20,019 nt of DNA from a virus, in the UHGV virus genome UHGV-1706396. One strand, written 5' to 3'. The notes beneath the pieces were generated by a model. It saw only the letters and a list, made by a program, of their open reading frames with translations, searched no databases and was not told the DNA's origin. This document shows positions 3,633 to 20,019 of the stretch, piece after piece. Position 1 is the first letter of the stretch, and every line of letters begins with the position of its first letter. The translations under genes and the position numbers were made by a program.

Positions 3633-3719
3633 TGGCGGAGAGTAATGGAATCGAACCATCATCGCTTGCGCAATGGGACGGTTTTCAAGACCGCTTGAGC
3701 ACCATGCTCCCTACTCTCC
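3633..3719 (-). tRNA. tRNA-Ser (anticodon TGA), class II with long variable arm
   Basis: Hand fold of the minus strand: acceptor GGAGAGT/ACTCTCC, anticodon stem GCGGT/ACCGT with loop CTTGAAA, T-arm GATGG-TTCGATT-CCATT, encoded CCA. D-arm is atypical (short loop or 3-nt linker). Confidence 0.65.
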
Positions 3720-4387: not shown

Positions 4388-4463
4388 TGGTGCCGGTTAA
4401 CGGACTTGAACCGCTGACCATTCGCTTACAAAGCGACTGCTCTACCAACTGAGCTAAACCGGC
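4388..4463 (-). tRNA. tRNA-Thr (anticodon TGT)
   Basis: 76 nt: acceptor GCCGGTT/AACCGGC, D-stem GCTC/GAGC, anticodon loop TTTGTAA (27-43 pair mismatched), T-arm AGCGG-TTCAAGT-CCGTT, encoded CCA. Confidence 0.8.
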
Positions 4464-4467
4464 AATT

Positions 4468-4554
4468 TGGTGGGGAGTGATGGAGTCGAACCACCCGAGT
4501 CGCAATGACAGTAGATTTACAGTCTACCCCGCTACCCCTACGGACTAACTCCCC
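4468..4554 (-). tRNA. tRNA-Tyr (anticodon GTA), long variable arm
   Basis: 87 nt: acceptor GGGGAGT/ACTCCCC, anticodon arm GTAGA-CTGTAAA-TCTAC, T-arm GGTGG-TTCGACT-CCATC, discriminator A, encoded CCA. Confidence 0.85.
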
Positions 4555-4559
4555 TAAAT

Positions 4560-4634
4560 TGGCGATGGTGGGTGGATTCGAACCACCGACCAGTTGGTTA
4601 ACAGCCAACTGCTCTACCGCTGAGCTACACCATC
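4560..4634 (-). tRNA. tRNA-Asn (anticodon GTT)
   Basis: 75 nt canonical cloverleaf: acceptor GATGGTG/CACCATC, D-stem GCTC/GAGC, anticodon arm GTTGG-CTGTTAA-CCAAC, T-arm GGTGG-TTCGAAT-CCACC, encoded CCA. Confidence 0.9.
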
Positions 4635-5207: not shown

Positions 5208-5382
5208 TGCGTTCTGCAATCACACTCGCTCAGTGTGTCCCATTTCGGTAACGAGGCTGGAAACTGACCTCGCTGGTGTTTGGCTTATTAGGCTACTGCC
5301 AGATAGACTTCTTCGTTTGCACTTGTATTTAAGTTCAAACAGTCGCGTCTCAACGAAAACAAAGTCATCTTATACACAAAAG

Positions 5383-5402
5383 ATAAGTAAGTAAATACTT
5401 AT
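5383..5402. promoter_or_regulatory. Operator-like palindrome ATAAGT-N8-ACTTAT (copy 2 of 3; flanked to a perfect 7-bp inverted repeat)
   Basis: GATAAGT-aagtaaat-ACTTATC at 5382-5403, just 3' of the 5413-5703 gene. Confidence 0.35.
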
Positions 5403-5412
5403 CAATATGTTT

Positions 5413-8034: not shown

Positions 8035-8048
8035 TGTACTTACCTATC
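8035..8048. promoter_or_regulatory. Recurrent 14-mer TGTACTTACCTATC (identical copy at 17093-17106; near-copy at 12347-12359)
   Basis: Exact 14-mer duplicated 9 kb apart, each upstream of a minus-strand gene start. Confidence 0.35.
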
Positions 8049-12326: not shown

Positions 12327-12442
12327 GTGGCTCACCTGGTAGGTAGTTACTTACTTATCACAATGAGCGGATGATAGCGACTGGTGGCAGTTTTTGGAAG
12401 TGGAAACGGAAGGGAGTTGTTCTGGTGGTGTCTTTTAAAAGA

Positions 12443-13392: not shown

Positions 13393-13430
13393 ATGCATTG
13401 GCGCGTACATTGCGCCAATGCATAATTTTT
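13393..13430 (+). terminator. Rho-independent terminator after the GIY-YIG gene
   Basis: 12-bp perfect stem ATGCATTGGCGC / GCGCCAATGCAT with 7-nt loop, followed by AATTTTT. Confidence 0.7.
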
Positions 13431-13788
13431 AACCTTTCTTCATCAACTCTCGTTTGATTTCATCGGTACGCATCGTGACATCGGCAGCTGTGATCGCCTC
13501 GTTAAGTTTCACGATGTCCTCGATTTCCTGCGGTGACTTCTCTGCCAGATGGAAAATGGCTGCTCGAATCACGTCTGAACGAGTGAACTTCTCGAAGCGA
13601 GGGATGAACTTCATCATCTCCAGCAGTTCGAAGTATTCGTCCTCCAGTGACATTGTGCGGCTTTTAATTTTCTCTTTGCCACGAGTCGGGCGTCCCTGTG
13701 GTCTGAGTGGTTGGCGCAAAGGAGTTGTATTCTTAGCCGGTTCATCAGTCTCTTTGCGCTTTGCTAGGTCACCCATTTTCATGGACAT
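13429..13788 (-). CDS. Small partition protein, ribbon-helix-helix type (ParG/ParB-like centromere-binding protein)
   Basis: 119-aa ORF coupled to parA (TAATG overlap); basic disordered N-terminus then RHH-like segment KSRTMSLEDEYFELLEMM...SDVIRAAIFHL. Confidence 0.5.
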   Translation of the reverse strand: MSMKMGDLAKRKETDEPAKNTTPLRQPLRPQGRPTRGKEKIKSRTMSLEDEYFELLEMMKFIPRFEKFTRSDVIRAAIFHLAEKSPQEIEDIVKLNEAITAADVTMRTDEIKRELMKKG

Positions 13789-14689: not shown

Positions 14690-14774
14690 TTTTAAAGTAA
14701 TTTTTGAGTCGAAAACTCAGTTTGAACAGAGGAGATTGATGGCCTTCCTACATCACGGCCATCAGGAGGAATAC

Positions 14775-15044
14775 ATGTCAGCACTAAAAAAGCAGCGCAT
14801 CGATTTGAGATTAACCGATGACGATAAAAGCATCATCGAGGAAGCTGCCGCAATGTCTAACCAGAGCATTACTCAGTTTATGGTTAGCAGTGCATCTGAA
14901 CGTGCCGTGAAAGTTATAGAGCAACACCGTAGACTAGTTCTGAATGAAGAATCCTGGAATCTGGTTATGGACGCTTTAAGCAATCCTCCGGCACCGAACG
15001 ACAAGCTGAAACGAGCTGCTGATCGTCTGAAAAGCATGGAGTAG
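14775..15044 (+). CDS. DUF1778-type antitoxin (TacA/AtaR-like) of a GNAT toxin-antitoxin pair
   Basis: Small ORF immediately upstream of the GNAT toxin gene. Start placed at the ATG at 14775, which has an AGGAGG RBS 5 nt upstream, rather than the TTG at 14736. Confidence 0.75.
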   Translation: MSALKKQRIDLRLTDDDKSIIEEAAAMSNQSITQFMVSSASERAVKVIEQHRRLVLNEESWNLVMDALSNPPAPNDKLKRAADRLKSME

Positions 15045-15051
15045 TTTACTC

Positions 15052-15573
15052 GTGGATAATATAAAGATAGAAATTTTCTCTGGAGAGAAAGATTATGATT
15101 TGAATGGTTTTGATTGCGGTGAAGAATCACTAAATGCCTTTTTAACCAACCACTTAAAAAGGCAGCATGAGGGAAAAATTCTTCGCGCTTATATGCTTTG
15201 CACTAAAGAAGACAGACCAAAAGTGTTAGGGTATTACACTTTGTCAGGCAGCTGCTTTGAAAAGGAGTCCTTACCTTCAAGAAGCCAGCAAAAGAAGGTA
15301 CCTTATCGGAATGTTCCAAGTGTTACTTTGGGCAGACTGGCTTTGGACAAATCTCTTCAAGGTCAAGGATTTGGCTCAATGCTTGTAACACACGCTATGC
15401 GTGTTGTGTATAATGCCTCTCTTGCTGTTGGTATTCATGGACTCTTCGTTGAGGCGTTGAATGATAAAGCTAAGGCGTTTTATAAAAGTCTGGGCTTTAT
15501 CCAGTTGATTGGAAACAACGAGCGATCTTTGTTCTATCCAACAAAATCTATCGAAAAATTGTTCGAAGAATAA
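15052..15573 (+). CDS. GNAT-family acetyltransferase toxin (TacT/AtaT-like)
   Basis: 173-aa ORF with GTG start 7 nt after the antitoxin stop; GNAT core VTLGRLALDKSLQGQGFGSMLV; closely resembles my recollection of E. coli AtaT (not verified). Confidence 0.8.
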   Translation: MDNIKIEIFSGEKDYDLNGFDCGEESLNAFLTNHLKRQHEGKILRAYMLCTKEDRPKVLGYYTLSGSCFEKESLPSRSQQKKVPYRNVPSVTLGRLALDKSLQGQGFGSMLVTHAMRVVYNASLAVGIHGLFVEALNDKAKAFYKSLGFIQLIGNNERSLFYPTKSIEKLFEE

Positions 15574-15604: not shown

Positions 15605-15820
15605 TCACCAACCGCAAACTCTCTCTCCCATCGTATTGTGAAAAAGGATTTGGCGTTCGGTTTCTTCGGTCATTACATCATTATTGCTGATATAGATAGG
15701 CTCAGCTCCATCGCAGAACAATACGCTGGCGGTTTGTGGTTTAATGACGCACCCACTTATCATACAACTCACGATGAACGGCAGAAGCATCTTTCTGACG
15801 TATTTTATTGCTCGTCTCAT
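15605..15820 (-). CDS. Putative o-spanin (Rz1-like outer-membrane lipoprotein), overlapping the i-spanin 3' end
   Basis: 71-aa ORF with basic n-region, hydrophobic core and lipobox ISGC; overlaps the i-spanin gene in another frame. Confidence 0.45.
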   Translation of the reverse strand: MRRAIKYVRKMLLPFIVSCMISGCVIKPQTASVLFCDGAEPIYISNNDVMTEETERQILFHNTMGERVCGW

Positions 15821-15992
15821 TCACCACTTCCACTGTGCTTTGAAGTCGTTTCCTGTCTTCCTGTTTTGCCTTCTCTTCTATTGCTCGTCGCGCCGCATTT
15901 CCGCCCATCGTGTAAGCGCCGACCAGAACGAAAAGAACGGCAGCCAGCGTAATCAAAGCAACTTTTAGCTTTGTCATCAGGCTGCCTAGCAT
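15741..15992 (-). CDS. Putative i-spanin (Rz-like)
   Basis: 83-aa ORF: N-terminal TM helix LKVALITLAAVLFVLVGAY then a charged periplasmic segment; directly downstream of the endolysin candidate. Confidence 0.5.
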   Translation of the reverse strand: MLGSLMTKLKVALITLAAVLFVLVGAYTMGGNAARRAIEEKAKQEDRKRLQSTVEVVNETSNKIRQKDASAVHRELYDKWVRH

Positions 15993-15993
15993 A

Positions 15994-16713
15994 TTAGACC
16001 ATCCCTTTCTGGTGTCGTCTTACCTGCGACCAGGCAATGAATCCGGCCACAACAATAGTGGCAATGCCGAAGATGATGCGTACTGTATCCCCGCTAGAGA
16101 TATGACCTTGTGCCTTATCCATAGCAGCGGAAACCTGCGGCATAACATCGGCCAGCTGCGCCAGACCAATACCTGCTGTAACAGTTGCGCCTGCAGTTTC
16201 TTTAGTTACAGGAACAGCCTTGACGGTTTTCACCGGCTTAACGACGCCAGCCCGACGCAGACCTTCCTCAATAACTTCTGCCGCATACCAGGTGTTCAGC
16301 GTTTTAAGCGGACCTCGGCCATTCTCGTGGCGAATGATTGCCTCAACCAAAGGTCGAAGGATGTCGTAATCATGCAGATCGATAAGCATGTCTGCGGTTA
16401 CACCAACGGCTTTAGACACCTCATTAATGTAGGCGTCAGTGTTGTTTTCATTCGGCGGTGCCCAACGTTCAATAACTTCACGAATGGTATCGATACTTGA
16501 GCCGTCTTTTGCGCGACGTTTGTCGTGGTAGGTAATTAGAGTCACCGCCAGCGCACGAATCCCCCAAACAGGGTCTTTAAACGTGCAAAAGCGCGGTTCG
16601 TCTGGATTCGCAACCAGACCTTGCCACGGTGATCCTTTATCAAGATTACCGGGGTTATTATTACGAATGCCTCTCGGAGTCTTCATCCTTGATCTCCTGT
16701 TATTGCAGTCCAT
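15994..16713 (-). CDS. Putative endolysin / cell-wall hydrolase with C-terminal hydrophobic segment
   Basis: 239-aa ORF between the holin-like and spanin genes; N-terminal GIRNNNPGNL motif; C-terminal hydrophobic stretch IIFGIATIVVAGFIAW. The enzymatic family was not identified. Confidence 0.45.
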   Translation of the reverse strand: MDCNNRRSRMKTPRGIRNNNPGNLDKGSPWQGLVANPDEPRFCTFKDPVWGIRALAVTLITYHDKRRAKDGSSIDTIREVIERWAPPNENNTDAYINEVSKAVGVTADMLIDLHDYDILRPLVEAIIRHENGRGPLKTLNTWYAAEVIEEGLRRAGVVKPVKTVKAVPVTKETAGATVTAGIGLAQLADVMPQVSAAMDKAQGHISSGDTVRIIFGIATIVVAGFIAWSQVRRHQKGMV

Positions 16714-17023
16714 TTTTTACGCCATACGCGGCTAACCCCAAAAGCAGTGCAGTAATAATGAACGACGTTATTTTAGAAACAATGCCGCCAAAGAACCCAC
16801 TGGAGATGGAATCTAACCGGTTAAGGAGTTTGTCCAGATTGGAGTGTTGAATACTATGTTGCGCCGGGGTCATATCACCAAAGTAGGTTTTCAGCTGATC
16901 ATTGACCTCCTGGCCAATTTCTTCACGTAGCTCTTTACCTAATTTGCCAACAACCTCCCGAGCAACGATCGCGGCAATACGCTCAACTTGCTCTGTTGTA
17001 ACGCCCGCCATCTCGTTCGACAT
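16700..17023 (-). CDS. Holin-like tail-anchored membrane protein
   Basis: Acidic soluble N-terminus and a single C-terminal TM (ITSFIITALLLGLAAYGV). Preferred start is the second ATG (17023) with a GGAGG RBS; the track start at 17035 lacks an RBS. Overlaps the endolysin start by 14 nt. Confidence 0.4.
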   Translation of the reverse strand: MSNEMAGVTTEQVERIAAIVAREVVGKLGKELREEIGQEVNDQLKTYFGDMTPAQHSIQHSNLDKLLNRLDSISSGFFGGIVSKITSFIITALLLGLAAYGVKNGLQ

Positions 17024-17104
17024 GTTTTCCTCCATGAAAAGTCAAATCGGGATGGCGGATTTATATCACATTTCACCCTTTTGTTGTAGGTGTGTACTTA
17101 CCTA

Positions 17105-17338
17105 TCATTCAGCATTGCAACGGACTGATGAGAAAGCACCTACTCCTACCCATCGCCAGTTATAGATGCTACCCGCTTTGTATAAGGTATAGTCGTTCAC
17201 TTTTTTAACAGCATATATGGGTATGACTGTCTCCTGTCCACCAATGATAGCCTCACCATAACATATAGGTGTCGGCAATTTCTGGCAGCCAGTAAGAGAG
17301 AGAACAACAGCTATTGTTAGAAATAATCTTTTCATCAT
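17105..17338 (-). CDS. Small lipoprotein, candidate superinfection-exclusion protein (Cor/Llp-like)
   Basis: 77-aa ORF; signal peptide MMKRLFLTIAVVLSLTGC with lipobox LTGC; sits between the tail-fibre genes and the lysis cassette, the typical Cor/Llp position. Confidence 0.55.
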   Translation of the reverse strand: MMKRLFLTIAVVLSLTGCQKLPTPICYGEAIIGGQETVIPIYAVKKVNDYTLYKAGSIYNWRWVGVGAFSSVRCNAE

Positions 17339-17345
17339 TTACTCA

Positions 17346-17954
17346 TCAGTTATACAGATTTCTATTTATTACCGGTACTCTGCCATTTACGCTAAAACTA
17401 TGGCCGCCATTAAGTTGGTTTACGAATATCGAGCTAACAGTATTTCCATATGCCGCATATCCATAAACCATTGTCATGGCTCCGCCCGGTACTGGAACAG
17501 CGAAAACATTCGCATATGTTGGGATTATCGCTGGTGGGTAATCAAAAACATGCCCTCCAGAGCTGTTCCACTCCGTATTATTAAGAAAGGTAAATGAAAG
17601 TGGGATATTTGCCGTATTATAGATTTCCTCCCCTTGTGCATTGAAAAAACTCATGCCCCAAGTTTCTTTTTTGGCTATACCTTTCGAAAATACGTATATC
17701 GTGGCACTAGAGTCGCTACCCTGACCTCCGAAACTGTAAATCACCTGGTTGTTACGCACTATTCTGTTGGCTATTAATGAAACAGCTTTCGAATAGGCGA
17801 CAAAAATCATCGGTGAACGATCTGGAGATATTTGGGTGTTAAACTCTGTCCCGCCGGACAAAGAAACAACCTGCTTTCTCTGAAAAACGATAGGAGACAA
17901 AGAAGGAGACATCCAGACCTTCCCGTCAGATCGATATATCTTGCTTCCGTACAT
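17346..17954 (-). CDS. Hypothetical tail-fibre-associated protein (202 aa)
   Basis: Gly/Ser-rich ORF coupled to the upstream 84-aa ORF (TAATG overlap), downstream of the tail fibre gene. Confidence 0.5.
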   Translation of the reverse strand: MYGSKIYRSDGKVWMSPSLSPIVFQRKQVVSLSGGTEFNTQISPDRSPMIFVAYSKAVSLIANRIVRNNQVIYSFGGQGSDSSATIYVFSKGIAKKETWGMSFFNAQGEEIYNTANIPLSFTFLNNTEWNSSGGHVFDYPPAIIPTYANVFAVPVPGGAMTMVYGYAAYGNTVSSIFVNQLNGGHSFSVNGRVPVINRNLYN

Positions 17955-18208
17955 TATTTTTGAAAAACCAATATGTTTAAATTGCCACTAGCTCCAGACC
18001 ATGAAATGGTATTTCCAGAAACCGTAAGACTTGTGTATTTCCCATTGGTTACGTCCATTATGTAATAGTCGATTCCCAATCCCGCCTCAACCTCATATGT
18101 TCTACTTCCAGAACCAGAGGGAGTAAAATAATCGAGGTAATAAACAGGGGCCAACGCATCGACCATCTCCTGTCTTGATGGCGACCAAACTTGTGCACCA
18201 TAGCTCAT
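17954..18208 (-). CDS. Hypothetical small protein (84 aa) downstream of the tail fibre
   Basis: ORF with AAGGA RBS 7 nt upstream of ATG. Confidence 0.5.
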   Translation of the reverse strand: MSYGAQVWSPSRQEMVDALAPVYYLDYFTPSGSGSRTYEVEAGLGIDYYIMDVTNGKYTSLTVSGNTISWSGASGNLNILVFQK

Positions 18209-18268: not shown

Positions 18269-20019
18269 TTATTCTTTAGGTGAATTTAACTTCGATTCAA
18301 GTTCCTCAACTCTTTTTGTCAGTTTCTGAATATGGTGAATAAGCGGGACAACCAGACGATCATACATGACACCTTCTGCGACCATCCCATTATCAGACGC
18401 TATACTTGGATCATCTTTGTCTGTAAGAGGACGCCAGTGAACATATTGCGGTGCTATTTCTCCGACTTCTTCTGCAATAAGGCCATAGTGCCCCCAATCT
18501 TTTCGGTCCGTTTCGCATGTAGATCGATACCATACGGGACGTAGTTTCAACACTTCGTCCGCGTACTTGTTCTCTAAAGACTCGATATCAGTTTTATATC
18601 TACGCGATGATGTCGAACGGAAAACCTTGTTATACCCAGCAATAGGGCTAACAAACATATTAGGGCTATCCGTAGTAGTCATGATGTCATAAATATACAA
18701 GTCGTAGCACGACACCATGTAAAACGCACCATCTAGATTCCCATTTTCCAACGCTCGTTTAGAAACATAATCGTTGAGTTTAGTATTTACTTCCCCAATG
18801 GTGTAAGCACCTAAATCCAGTGCGGTTAATGTAATATTCTTACTACCGTCAAACGCTACGCCGTTAATTGTACGTGCTGTTTGCAACTTGGTTGCTGTTG
18901 CAGCATTACCAGTAGTGTTCTGATTACCGGTCGTATTCACACCAGGTAAGTTAATATTGGCTGTACCGTTAAAACTAACACCACCGATAGTACGAGCCGT
19001 TTGTAACTTCGTGGCTGACGCCGCGTTTCCTGTTGTGTTCTGATTACCAGTCGTATTAACACCAGGCAAGTTAATATTCGCAGTACCATCAAAGCTCACA
19101 CCGCCGATAGTTCTTGCCGTCTGTAGTTTTGTAGCTGTAGCAGCATTACCCGTTGTGTTCTGATTACCGGTGGCATTGACACCTGGAATTGAGTCTTTGG
19201 ACGTATAAACTTGCGCCCACTCTGACCAACTAGCTGTATCAGTATCTCGTCGCGAACGTACATGTACAGGTGCATGAGCGCCACTTGTACCGCTCCAACC
19301 TATGAACAACTCGCCTTCACCAACGGCTGTTGCCCCCTTAAGATGAAGCACATTCCCGTAAGTCGAAGGATAGCCGTTGTTATATGCCTCGTACATCTGC
19401 AATCCAGTAGCAGCACCTTGCGTTGTGCCTGTGAGCGCAGTAACGCGTCCTCTGGACGTAATTGTTGGTATCGAAATATTCGCAGAGCCGTTAAACGACA
19501 CTCCGTTAATAGTTCTCGCAGTTTGCAACTTGGTCGCTGTAGCCGCGTTACCGGTAGTGTTCTGATTACCAGCAGCATTAACTCCAGGAAGATTAATGTT
19601 CGCAGTGCCATCGAAGCTAACACCACCGATGGTTCTTGCTGTCTGCAATTTAGTAGCTGTAGCAGCATTACCTGTGGTGCTTTGGTTGCCAGCTTTGTTA
19701 ACTCCGGGCAAGTCGATGTTGGCAGTTCCGTTAAATGAAACGCCACCAATCGTTCTTGCCGTTTGAAGTTTTGTAGCGGTTGCGGCATTACCAGTAGTGC
19801 TCTGATTGCCTGCCGTGTTTACACCAGGCAAATTTATGTTCGCAGATCCATCGAAGGCCACGCCACCGATAGTTCTTGCAGTCTGCAATTTCGTGGCGGT
19901 ACTCGCATTGCCATTCAATGAACCAGTTAATCCACCTGTAACTGACAACGGACCTGAAACCGTCCCTCCGGTTGTTGGCAGTGCTCCAATATCTGATGGT
20001 GTAGGTTTCTGATGTGAGC
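18269..20019 (-). CDS. Tail fibre protein, C-terminal part (gene continues beyond the right edge), with tandem fibre repeats and a C-terminal intramolecular chaperone-like domain
   Basis: The frame stays open from 19948 to the window end, so the track start (TTG) is an artefact. Repeats of ...GNQNTTGNAATATKLQTARTIGGVSFDGTANINLPGVN...; C-terminal ~130 aa (SRRYKTDIESLENKYADEVL...) resembles the autoproteolytic chaperone domain of phage tail fibres and endosialidases. Confidence 0.85.
   Translation of the reverse strand, partial: SHQKPTPSDIGALPTTGGTVSGPLSVTGGLTGSLNGNASTATKLQTARTIGGVAFDGSANINLPGVNTAGNQSTTGNAATATKLQTARTIGGVSFNGTANIDLPGVNKAGNQSTTGNAATATKLQTARTIGGVSFDGTANINLPGVNAAGNQNTTGNAATATKLQTARTINGVSFNGSANISIPTITSRGRVTALTGTTQGAATGLQMYEAYNNGYPSTYGNVLHLKGATAVGEGELFIGWSGTSGAHAPVHVRSRRDTDTASWSEWAQVYTSKDSIPGVNATGNQNTTGNAATATKLQTARTIGGVSFDGTANINLPGVNTTGNQNTTGNAASATKLQTARTIGGVSFNGTANINLPGVNTTGNQNTTGNAATATKLQTARTINGVAFDGSKNITLTALDLGAYTIGEVNTKLNDYVSKRALENGNLDGAFYMVSCYDLYIYDIMTTTDSPNMFVSPIAGYNKVFRSTSSRRYKTDIESLENKYADEVLKLRPVWYRSTCETDRKDWGHYGLIAEEVGEIAPQYVHWRPLTDKDDPSIASDNGMVAEGVMYDRLVVPLIHHIQKLTKRVEELESKLNSPKE
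18838..19213. repeat. Tandem ~96-bp coding repeats inside the tail fibre gene (second repeat block)
   Basis: Three to four imperfect in-frame 32-codon units encoding the TATKLQTARTI motif. Confidence 0.7.
19456..20019. repeat. Tandem ~96-bp coding repeats inside the tail fibre gene (first repeat block, runs to the window edge)
   Basis: At least five imperfect in-frame repeat units; the two blocks are separated by a non-repetitive domain. Confidence 0.7.

Follow-up and report, generated by a model that had tools for sequence, protein, structure and literature searches.

The mechanism by which a small phage lipoprotein closes an outer-membrane receptor has been solved for Llp of phage T5, which acts on FhuA; the authors of the FhuA-Llp structure described a Cys11-Cys58 disulphide that constrains the termini of Llp and is common to Cor proteins (PMC9586334). 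A three-gene cor cassette has been described in the phages T1, HK022, N15, ES18 and phi80, all of which are FhuA-dependent, and in the BASEL collection FhuA is used by every one of the 10 phages that carry the complete cassette (PMC13164509). In small siphoviruses, a dedicated receptor-binding protein and its cognate exclusion lipoprotein are thought to be the products of the locus downstream of gpJ (PMC8594841). Structural work has demonstrated such an arrangement for LptD and Rtp45 of phage Rtp (PDB 9RPS), a small lipoprotein that follows the same logic; it is encoded beside the receptor-binding locus and attaches on the periplasmic face to the receptor that its own phage uses (PMC12685063). 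In a recent large screen, receptor-specific families at this locus were defined by more than 30% identity (10.64898/2026.04.02.716166).

We analyzed one 20,019-nucleotide stretch of viral DNA, referred to here as the window. By nucleotide comparison, the window is part of an SSU5-like phage-plasmid of E. coli; it shares 96-97% identity with the Escherichia phages CMS-2020a, Cyrano and PhiR41_1, and 81% identity with Salmonella phage SSU5. The segment 17036-18300 recurs with 98.5-99.2% identity on plasmids of E. coli, E. albertii and E. fergusonii, which are mostly 109-113 kb in size; on the ∼110-kb plasmids that carry the segment, PGAP annotation reads 'cor: phage exclusion lipoprotein Cor'. 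Of 5,426 complete E. coli genomes, 170 contain a match to the segment, all on plasmids and none on the chromosome, and the match covers at least 80% of the segment in 66. Near-identical (at least 95%) full-length copies of the cassette are present in about 66 of the 5,426 genomes, always on plasmids.

Several other genes of the window were also noted. The minus strand holds a cluster of four tRNA genes at 3633-3719 and 4388-4634 (Ser-tga, Thr-tgt, Tyr-gta and Asn-gtt); the DNA around this cluster matches tRNA regions in P7, D6 and a Ro157c2YLVW-type phage with ∼94-95% identity. In the interval from the ParA partition gene to the lysis cassette there is a toxin-antitoxin pair (14736-15044 and 15052-15573, plus strand), for which the Cyrano annotation alone supplies the names antitoxin and KacT-type acetyltransferase toxin. 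Another gene beside ParA (13429-13788, minus strand) is RelE/ParE-like, a name taken from a relative's annotation only.

The gene under study, cor, is a real open reading frame on the minus strand. Its 77-residue product has the sequence MMKRLFLTIAVVLSLTGCQKLPTPICYGEAIIGGQETVIPIYAVKKVNDYTLYKAGSIYNWRWVGVGAFSSVRCNAE; the stop codon is TGA (17105-17107), and translation could alternatively start at the second Met codon, at 17335. The frame is not a chance one, since family HMMs match its product with E-values of 2e-30 and 6e-23, and matches are present in 193 phage records by tblastn. The precursor begins with the predicted lipoprotein signal peptide MMKRLFLTIAVVLSLTG, which is followed directly by the cysteine to be lipidated. 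Its n-region is basic (K3, R4), the hydrophobic core is ∼10 residues in length, and the lipobox L15-T16-G17-C18 occupies positions 17285-17296; the +2 residue is Gln, not Asp. Together with the invariance of Cys18 in 78 homologues, these features bear out the lipoprotein signal (LTGC) that had been claimed by a sequence-only reading of this DNA. The Pfam model LPAM_1 gave a weak, sub-threshold match to residues 2-19 (17.3 bits, cutoff 20). Pfam holds no Cor family, and this sub-threshold match was all that it returned for the cor product; in a PADLOC scan, cor was unmatched.

Judged by sequence models and alignments, the product is a member of the well-known Cor family, whose phage lipoproteins act on the inner side of the outer membrane to shut the entry receptor of their own phage. 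The NCBIfam equivalog NF047972 ('phage exclusion lipoprotein Cor') scored 80.7 bits against a cutoff of 31, with residues 2-75 aligned to profile positions 1-77/78, and PHROG 1119 ('Cor superinfection exclusion protein') matched the protein with an E-value of 2.3e-30. When 50,697 phage records were searched by tblastn, the 193 had matches covering at least 80% of Cor, and nearly all of these were annotated as Cor or superinfection exclusion. The identity to the window Cor is 56-59% for SSU5 (SSU5_025), 55-58% for Stx-converting phages, 47% for HK75 and mEp lambdoids, about 42-43% for N15 gene 24, and 27-34% for T1-like and Dhillonvirus phages. In a large protein collection, a single-sequence query returned 4 matches, and a profile of 7 Cor proteins returned 216 relatives, many of them named Cor. 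A family alignment of 78 sequences shows C18, C26 and C74 as invariant, and G33, G34, A55, G56, F59, V64 and F69 as near-invariant. The window protein has the marks of the family: a size of ∼75-80 residues with a lipobox Cys, two further conserved cysteines, and the final position in its cassette. The Cor/Llp-like identity proposed from the letters alone thus stands: the protein passes NF047972 and PHROG 1119, aligns over its full length with N15 gene 24 and the HK/mEp Cor proteins, and closes a three-gene cassette. The identification itself is not novel. Because a protein 100% identical to it is already named 'phage exclusion lipoprotein Cor' in public annotation (WP_000977750.1; PGAP, plasmid pS2-S1K81-2), naming it adds nothing new; the protein, its name, its family and its likely mechanism are all public.

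Table 1. Features of the cor region, sites of the repeated core, and related gene pairs in other genomes (positions refer to the window unless a locus number is given)
Feature	Position	Strand	Basis or content
cor, precursor of Cor-family exclusion lipoprotein, 77 aa	17105..17338	minus	ORF list and family models
Predicted signal peptide (aa 1-17) and codon of lipidated Cys18 (17285-17287)	17285..17338	minus	read from sequence
202-aa protein, middle gene of cor cassette	17346..17954	minus	PHROG 425 (legacy 'membrane associated protein'), E 4.5e-49
84-aa protein, first gene of cor cassette	17954..18208	minus	PHROG 557 (legacy 'outer membrane protein'), E 1.3e-24
Lateral tail fibre gene, 3' part	18269..20019	minus	Pfam Peptidase_S74 E 3.6e-9, tail fibre PHROGs, 120-nt repeats
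Holin	16700-17023	minus	
Endolysin	15994-16713	minus	PHROG 873
Rz	15741-15992	minus	PHROGs 1026 and 1275 (with Rz1)
Rz1 lipoprotein, overlapping Rz	15605-15820		PHROGs 1026 and 1275 (with Rz)
Boundary element outside cor	17087..17106	minus	motif GATAGGTAAGTA (17095-17106) and imperfect inverted repeat TAGGTAAGTACACACCTA (17087-17104)
Extended -10-like element TGATATAAA	17060..17068	minus	invariant in window, Cyrano, SSU5 and pS2
Core GATARGTAAGTA	5382-5393	plus	intergenic
Core GATARGTAAGTA	8037-8048	minus	intergenic
Core GATARGTAAGTA	12348-12359	minus	intergenic
Core GATARGTAAGTA	17095-17106	minus	intergenic
Core GATARGTAAGTA, 1 mismatch	2439-2450	plus	intergenic
Group-B pair without cor, CMS-2020a	L008 4717-5615		beside DUF4942 gene
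Group-B pair without cor, Cyrano	L012 3125-4023		beside DUF4942 gene
Same group-B allele, JenP1 (lytic Nonagvirus)	L011 4444-5342		beside J; 76-83% protein identity

The gene order on the minus strand is tail fibre, 84-aa gene, 202-aa gene, cor, holin, endolysin and Rz/Rz1 (Table 1), which agrees with the earlier placing of the ORF between tail fibre genes and a lysis cassette. The tail fibre frame is open to 20017 and runs beyond the end of the window; it contains 40-aa repeats and a C-terminal S74 intramolecular chaperone. Within this gene, 18833-19894 (minus strand) holds four copies of a 300-nt unit with a 120-nt (40-aa) period and the repeat GNQxTTGNAATATKLQTARTIGGVSFDG, and parts of the repeats are 80-83% identical to P1 tail fibre DNA. 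The 202-aa protein is ∼73-75% identical to SSU5_024 and 22-24% identical to N15 gp23 and T1 ST31; the 84-aa protein is 69% identical to SSU5_023 and 26-32% identical to N15 gp22 and T1 ST32. No strongly hydrophobic segment was found in the 202-aa protein (maximum Kyte-Doolittle 19-residue mean 1.24), and no hydrophobic segment in the 84-aa protein (maximum mean 0.54). On the other side of cor, the endolysin and the 107-aa 'holin' form an unusual lysis pair: the former has a strongly hydrophobic C-terminal segment (aa 213-231), the latter a single hydrophobic segment near its C-terminus, and neither is matched by any Pfam or NCBIfam family.

The order PHROG 557, PHROG 425, cor is also found in N15 (gp22/gp23), T1 (ST32/ST31), HK75 (gp21/gp22) and SSU5. 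Like the window protein, the Cor proteins of N15 (gene 24), HK022/HK75/mEp and phi80 fit the family model, are 77-78 residues in size, have the lipobox and the three invariant cysteines, and are encoded by the cassette-final gene in the tail region. However, the N15/HK-type proteins are only 42-47% identical to the window Cor, in which the linker after the lipid-bearing Cys is 3 residues shorter, and their partner proteins are only 22-32% identical to the window partners. Different from the N15/HK-type cassette, which follows J, the window cassette follows the lateral tail fibre gene and lies directly upstream of the putative lysis promoter; it likewise follows the fibre in pS2. The gap before cor is 7 nt in the window versus ∼110 nt in N15 and HK75. 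SSU5 is the closest characterized genome: it is a phage-plasmid of the same type, its cassette likewise precedes the holin gene, and its partner allele is that of the window (69-75% identity), but it has an extra tail fibre adhesin gene, a fibre of a different type, and a Cor that differs to the extent given above. T1 Cor belongs to the same family and has the same cassette partners by PHROG, whereas its identity is 28% and its gene lies on the strand opposite to the tail genes.

We predicted the structure of Cor with AlphaFold2 on the family alignment (mean pLDDT 87.8). In the model, a signal-peptide helix is followed by a small β-rich domain. The mature domain is 60 residues in size, and its two non-lipid cysteines, Cys26 and Cys74, correspond to mature positions 9 and 57. 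A Foldseek search of the model against the PDB gave nothing significant; among predicted viral structures (BFVD), the best matches were a Dhillonvirus Cor and lipoproteins of T5-like phages. T5 Llp (PDB 8A60, 7QJF) is 15% identical to the window Cor, a similarity that is not detectable by sequence, and a profile of 7 Cor sequences, run against all PDB sequences at E-values up to 10, did not retrieve it. The predicted models therefore support, with moderate strength, a three-dimensional fold shared by Cor and Llp, and the link is at the fold level only, since the sequence profile misses Llp and the PDB search was non-significant. The same fold-level conclusion was reached for other Cor proteins (PMC13164509; 10.64898/2026.03.26.714494). 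The surroundings of the two genes differ as well: the llp gene adjoins that of the receptor-binding protein pb5, which is unrelated to the proteins beside the window cor. The neighbours of the latter are the PHROG 425 and PHROG 557 proteins and the fibre with its S74 chaperone, and none is of the pb5 type. Between Rtp45 and the window Cor, we found neither a sequence nor a fold relation, and the target of Rtp45 is not a TonB-dependent transporter.

The reading that we favour, with a probability of roughly 80%, is that Cor works in the manner of Llp and blocks, from the periplasm, the outer-membrane receptor used by the phage. Within this analysis it is based on the family membership, the lipobox, the conserved cysteines, the Llp-like predicted fold and the synteny of the cassette, and from these we infer the localisation, the disulphide, the phenotype, the binding to a receptor and which receptor this is. 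The precursor would be exported by Sec and lipidated on Cys18, with signal peptidase II cutting between Gly17 and Cys18. In E. coli, Asp at +2 is the inner-membrane retention signal of Lol sorting; because the +2 residue of Cor is Gln and this signal is missing, the mature protein is predicted to sit in the outer membrane, facing the periplasm. A Cys26-Cys74 disulphide would probably tie the ends of the small β-rich domain. Cor would then bind the terminal receptor, an outer-membrane protein, from the periplasmic side, and an allosteric change on the extracellular side would lock the receptor, so that the receptor-binding protein of the phage could not use it. A carrier or infected cell would be expected to be closed to the same phage and to other users of that receptor, and progeny would be expected not to be wasted on cell debris.

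The timing of expression can be approached from the gene spacing. The stop codon of the 202-aa gene and the ATG of cor are separated by the 7 nt noted above, and in a scan for promoters and terminators no convincing promoter could be assigned to cor, nor was the gene followed by a terminator; shuffled sequence yielded more promoter-like sites than the real one. Owing to the short gap and the lack of a recognizable promoter of its own, it is plausible that cor is co-transcribed with the tail genes and thus expressed late. If so, protection of progeny from debris would be favoured as its role over exclusion in the prophage state.

Which receptor Cor would block is a separate question. By family precedent, FhuA is the default, and we put it at about an even chance; the two partner proteins are of a divergent allele, which makes the target uncertain. 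Global pairwise identities divide the partner pairs into three allele groups. Within group A (N15, HK75, T1) the pair proteins are 54-76% identical, within group B (Cyrano/CMS-2020a, JenP1, Stx phage phi367) 60-83%, and within group C (window, SSU5) 69-73%; between the groups the identity drops to 21-38%. The window partners are only 22-32% identical to the N15, HK75 and T1 alleles. It is accordingly possible, although we hold it short of even, that this Cor variant is matched to the SSU5-type partner allele and that the receptor it blocks is not FhuA but, for instance, LptD, BtuB or some further TonB-dependent transporter. The distance between group C and the FhuA-linked group favours such a target, and the identity of the 202-aa protein to its N15, HK75 and T1 counterparts is below the 30% that bounds receptor-specific families. 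Precedents exist, too: Cor/Llp-like lipoproteins are also present in BtuB-using phages (PMC13164509), and an analogous lipoprotein blocks LptD (PMC12685063). The nearest non-SSU5 relatives of the 202-aa protein (29-31%) include those of the warwickviruses JLBYU07 and JLBYU19, for which the isolators reported that FhuA is not the sole receptor (PMC10373560). On the side of FhuA, the window Cor is 43-47% identical to the N15 and HK75 proteins; T1 Cor is only 36% identical to the same proteins, yet acts on FhuA, and the BASEL phages with the full cassette use FhuA without exception (PMC13164509). For SSU5 itself, the only reported requirement is the LPS core (PMC4138488). On the terminal receptor of SSU5-like E. 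coli phage-plasmids such as Cyrano and PhiR41_1, our search of the literature yielded no report.

Relatives differ in where the partner pair lies. We examined six SSU5-like genomes, with pS2 standing in for the incomplete window, and each contains exactly one pair. It is located at the tail locus with cor in pS2 and SSU5, and at a distant locus without cor, beside a DUF4942 gene, in Cyrano, PhiR41_1 and both CMS-2020a genomes, where it is of group B and ∼50 kb away; cor accompanies the tail-locus allele only. A second pair was found nowhere in SSU5 or in the complete plasmid pS2. Between J and the putative holin promoter, Cyrano has only a P1 S-like fibre, and CMS-2020a has at the tail locus a fibre and a glycine-rich, adhesin-like ORF (read from the translation), with no cassette; the absence of the tail-locus cassette from Cyrano, PhiR41_1 and the second CMS-2020a genome was deduced from nucleotide matches only. 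That all six genomes have a single pair is consistent with a required structural function, probably in receptor binding. The alleles of the pair proteins resemble each other at the N-terminus, where ∼20 residues are conserved, which would fit a common docking site on J. The C-terminus of J was considered as a marker of cassette presence and rejected: over its last 253 residues, the J of pS2, where the cassette is present, and that of Cyrano, where it is absent, share 99.6% identity. One tentative extension, which we rather doubt, is that the SSU5-type Cor blocks, as its cognate target, a non-FhuA receptor defined by the third allele group of this module, the module possibly being a receptor-binding attachment on the J tail tip.

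Related genes were also noted in Stx phages. The group-B pair of the SSU5-like genomes is 60-65% identical to the pair next to lom in Stx phages. In addition, short-tailed Stx-converting phages, such as vB_EcoP_phi367 (L007 5486-5713), carry a Cor-like gene whose product is 55-58% identical to the window Cor; it is located directly after a tail fibre adhesin gene, apart from their PHROG 557/PHROG 425 pair.

The sequence-only reading had also reported an exact copy of a motif overlapping the 3' end of cor. The copy is there: TGTACTTACCTATC occurs exactly at 17093-17106 and at 8035-8048. It is, however, no feature of cor but belongs to the putative lysis promoter region. The 14-mer as a feature or terminator of cor was rejected, as its overlap with the gene is limited to the two final bases (GA) of the stop codon, and the site is kept in Cyrano, which lacks the cassette. 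One repeated 14-mer in 20 kb is near chance (we estimate about one pair), and another exact 14-mer pair (D8) is present. The 12-nt core of the motif is a different matter, with 4 exact copies and 1 copy with a single mismatch in the window versus 0.1 expected; the 112-kb pS2 has 4 exact copies, with an estimated chance expectation of ∼0.03. Several copies form halves of inverted repeats, and 5382-5403 is a near-perfect palindrome. Near cor, the motif is the left half of the inverted repeat, whose SSU5 equivalent is the perfect palindrome GTAGGTAAGCGCTTACCTAC. When the window was aligned with Cyrano, SSU5 and pS2, the homology to the cassette-less Cyrano started exactly at the motif. The motif lies ∼42 bp upstream of the invariant -10-like element, a putative promoter element of the holin gene and lysis operon, and the holin start follows a GGAGG ribosome-binding site. 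In view of the over-represented core, the inverted repeat, the position upstream of this element and the start of the Cyrano homology, the motif is most likely a binding site at the putative lysis promoter for a regulator of the phage-plasmid. It also most likely marks the edge of the exchangeable cassette.

This boundary bears on the idea that cor encodes a lysis accessory lipoprotein of the adjacent cassette, for example an outer-membrane spanin subunit or a lysis regulator, as the place of a small lipoprotein gene directly upstream of the holin gene might suggest. We regard it as very improbable: the lysis cassette has its own Rz and overlapping Rz1 lipoprotein (15605-15992), Cor was matched by no lysis family and did not come out as an Rz1-like spanin, and between cor and the holin gene lies a promoter-like region that Cyrano, which has no cor there, retains along with the whole lysis cassette. 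Equally slight is the chance that the product is a component of the virion or of tail assembly, expressed along with the tail fibre and the two proteins encoded upstream, as the 7-nt gap and the missing promoter would allow, for a Sec-exported, lipid-anchored protein cannot enter a virion assembled in the cytoplasm, T1 cor lies on the opposite strand, and Cor-family members, in the work of Uc-Mass (2004) and Arguijo-Hernandez (2018), reportedly act when expressed on their own.

With Cor read as an Llp-like receptor blocker, carriers of this phage-plasmid may resist phages with the same terminal receptor. Should FhuA be the target, they may also show altered uptake of ferrichrome, albomycin and colicin M. 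This would be of relevance to the choice of phages for therapy against strains carrying the cassette. The point of some remaining value is the receptor targeted by the SSU5-type allele. If the tentative third-allele extension were true, phage-plasmids would swap the specificity for their terminal receptor by exchanging a small module, and one allele alone would bring along an exclusion lipoprotein.
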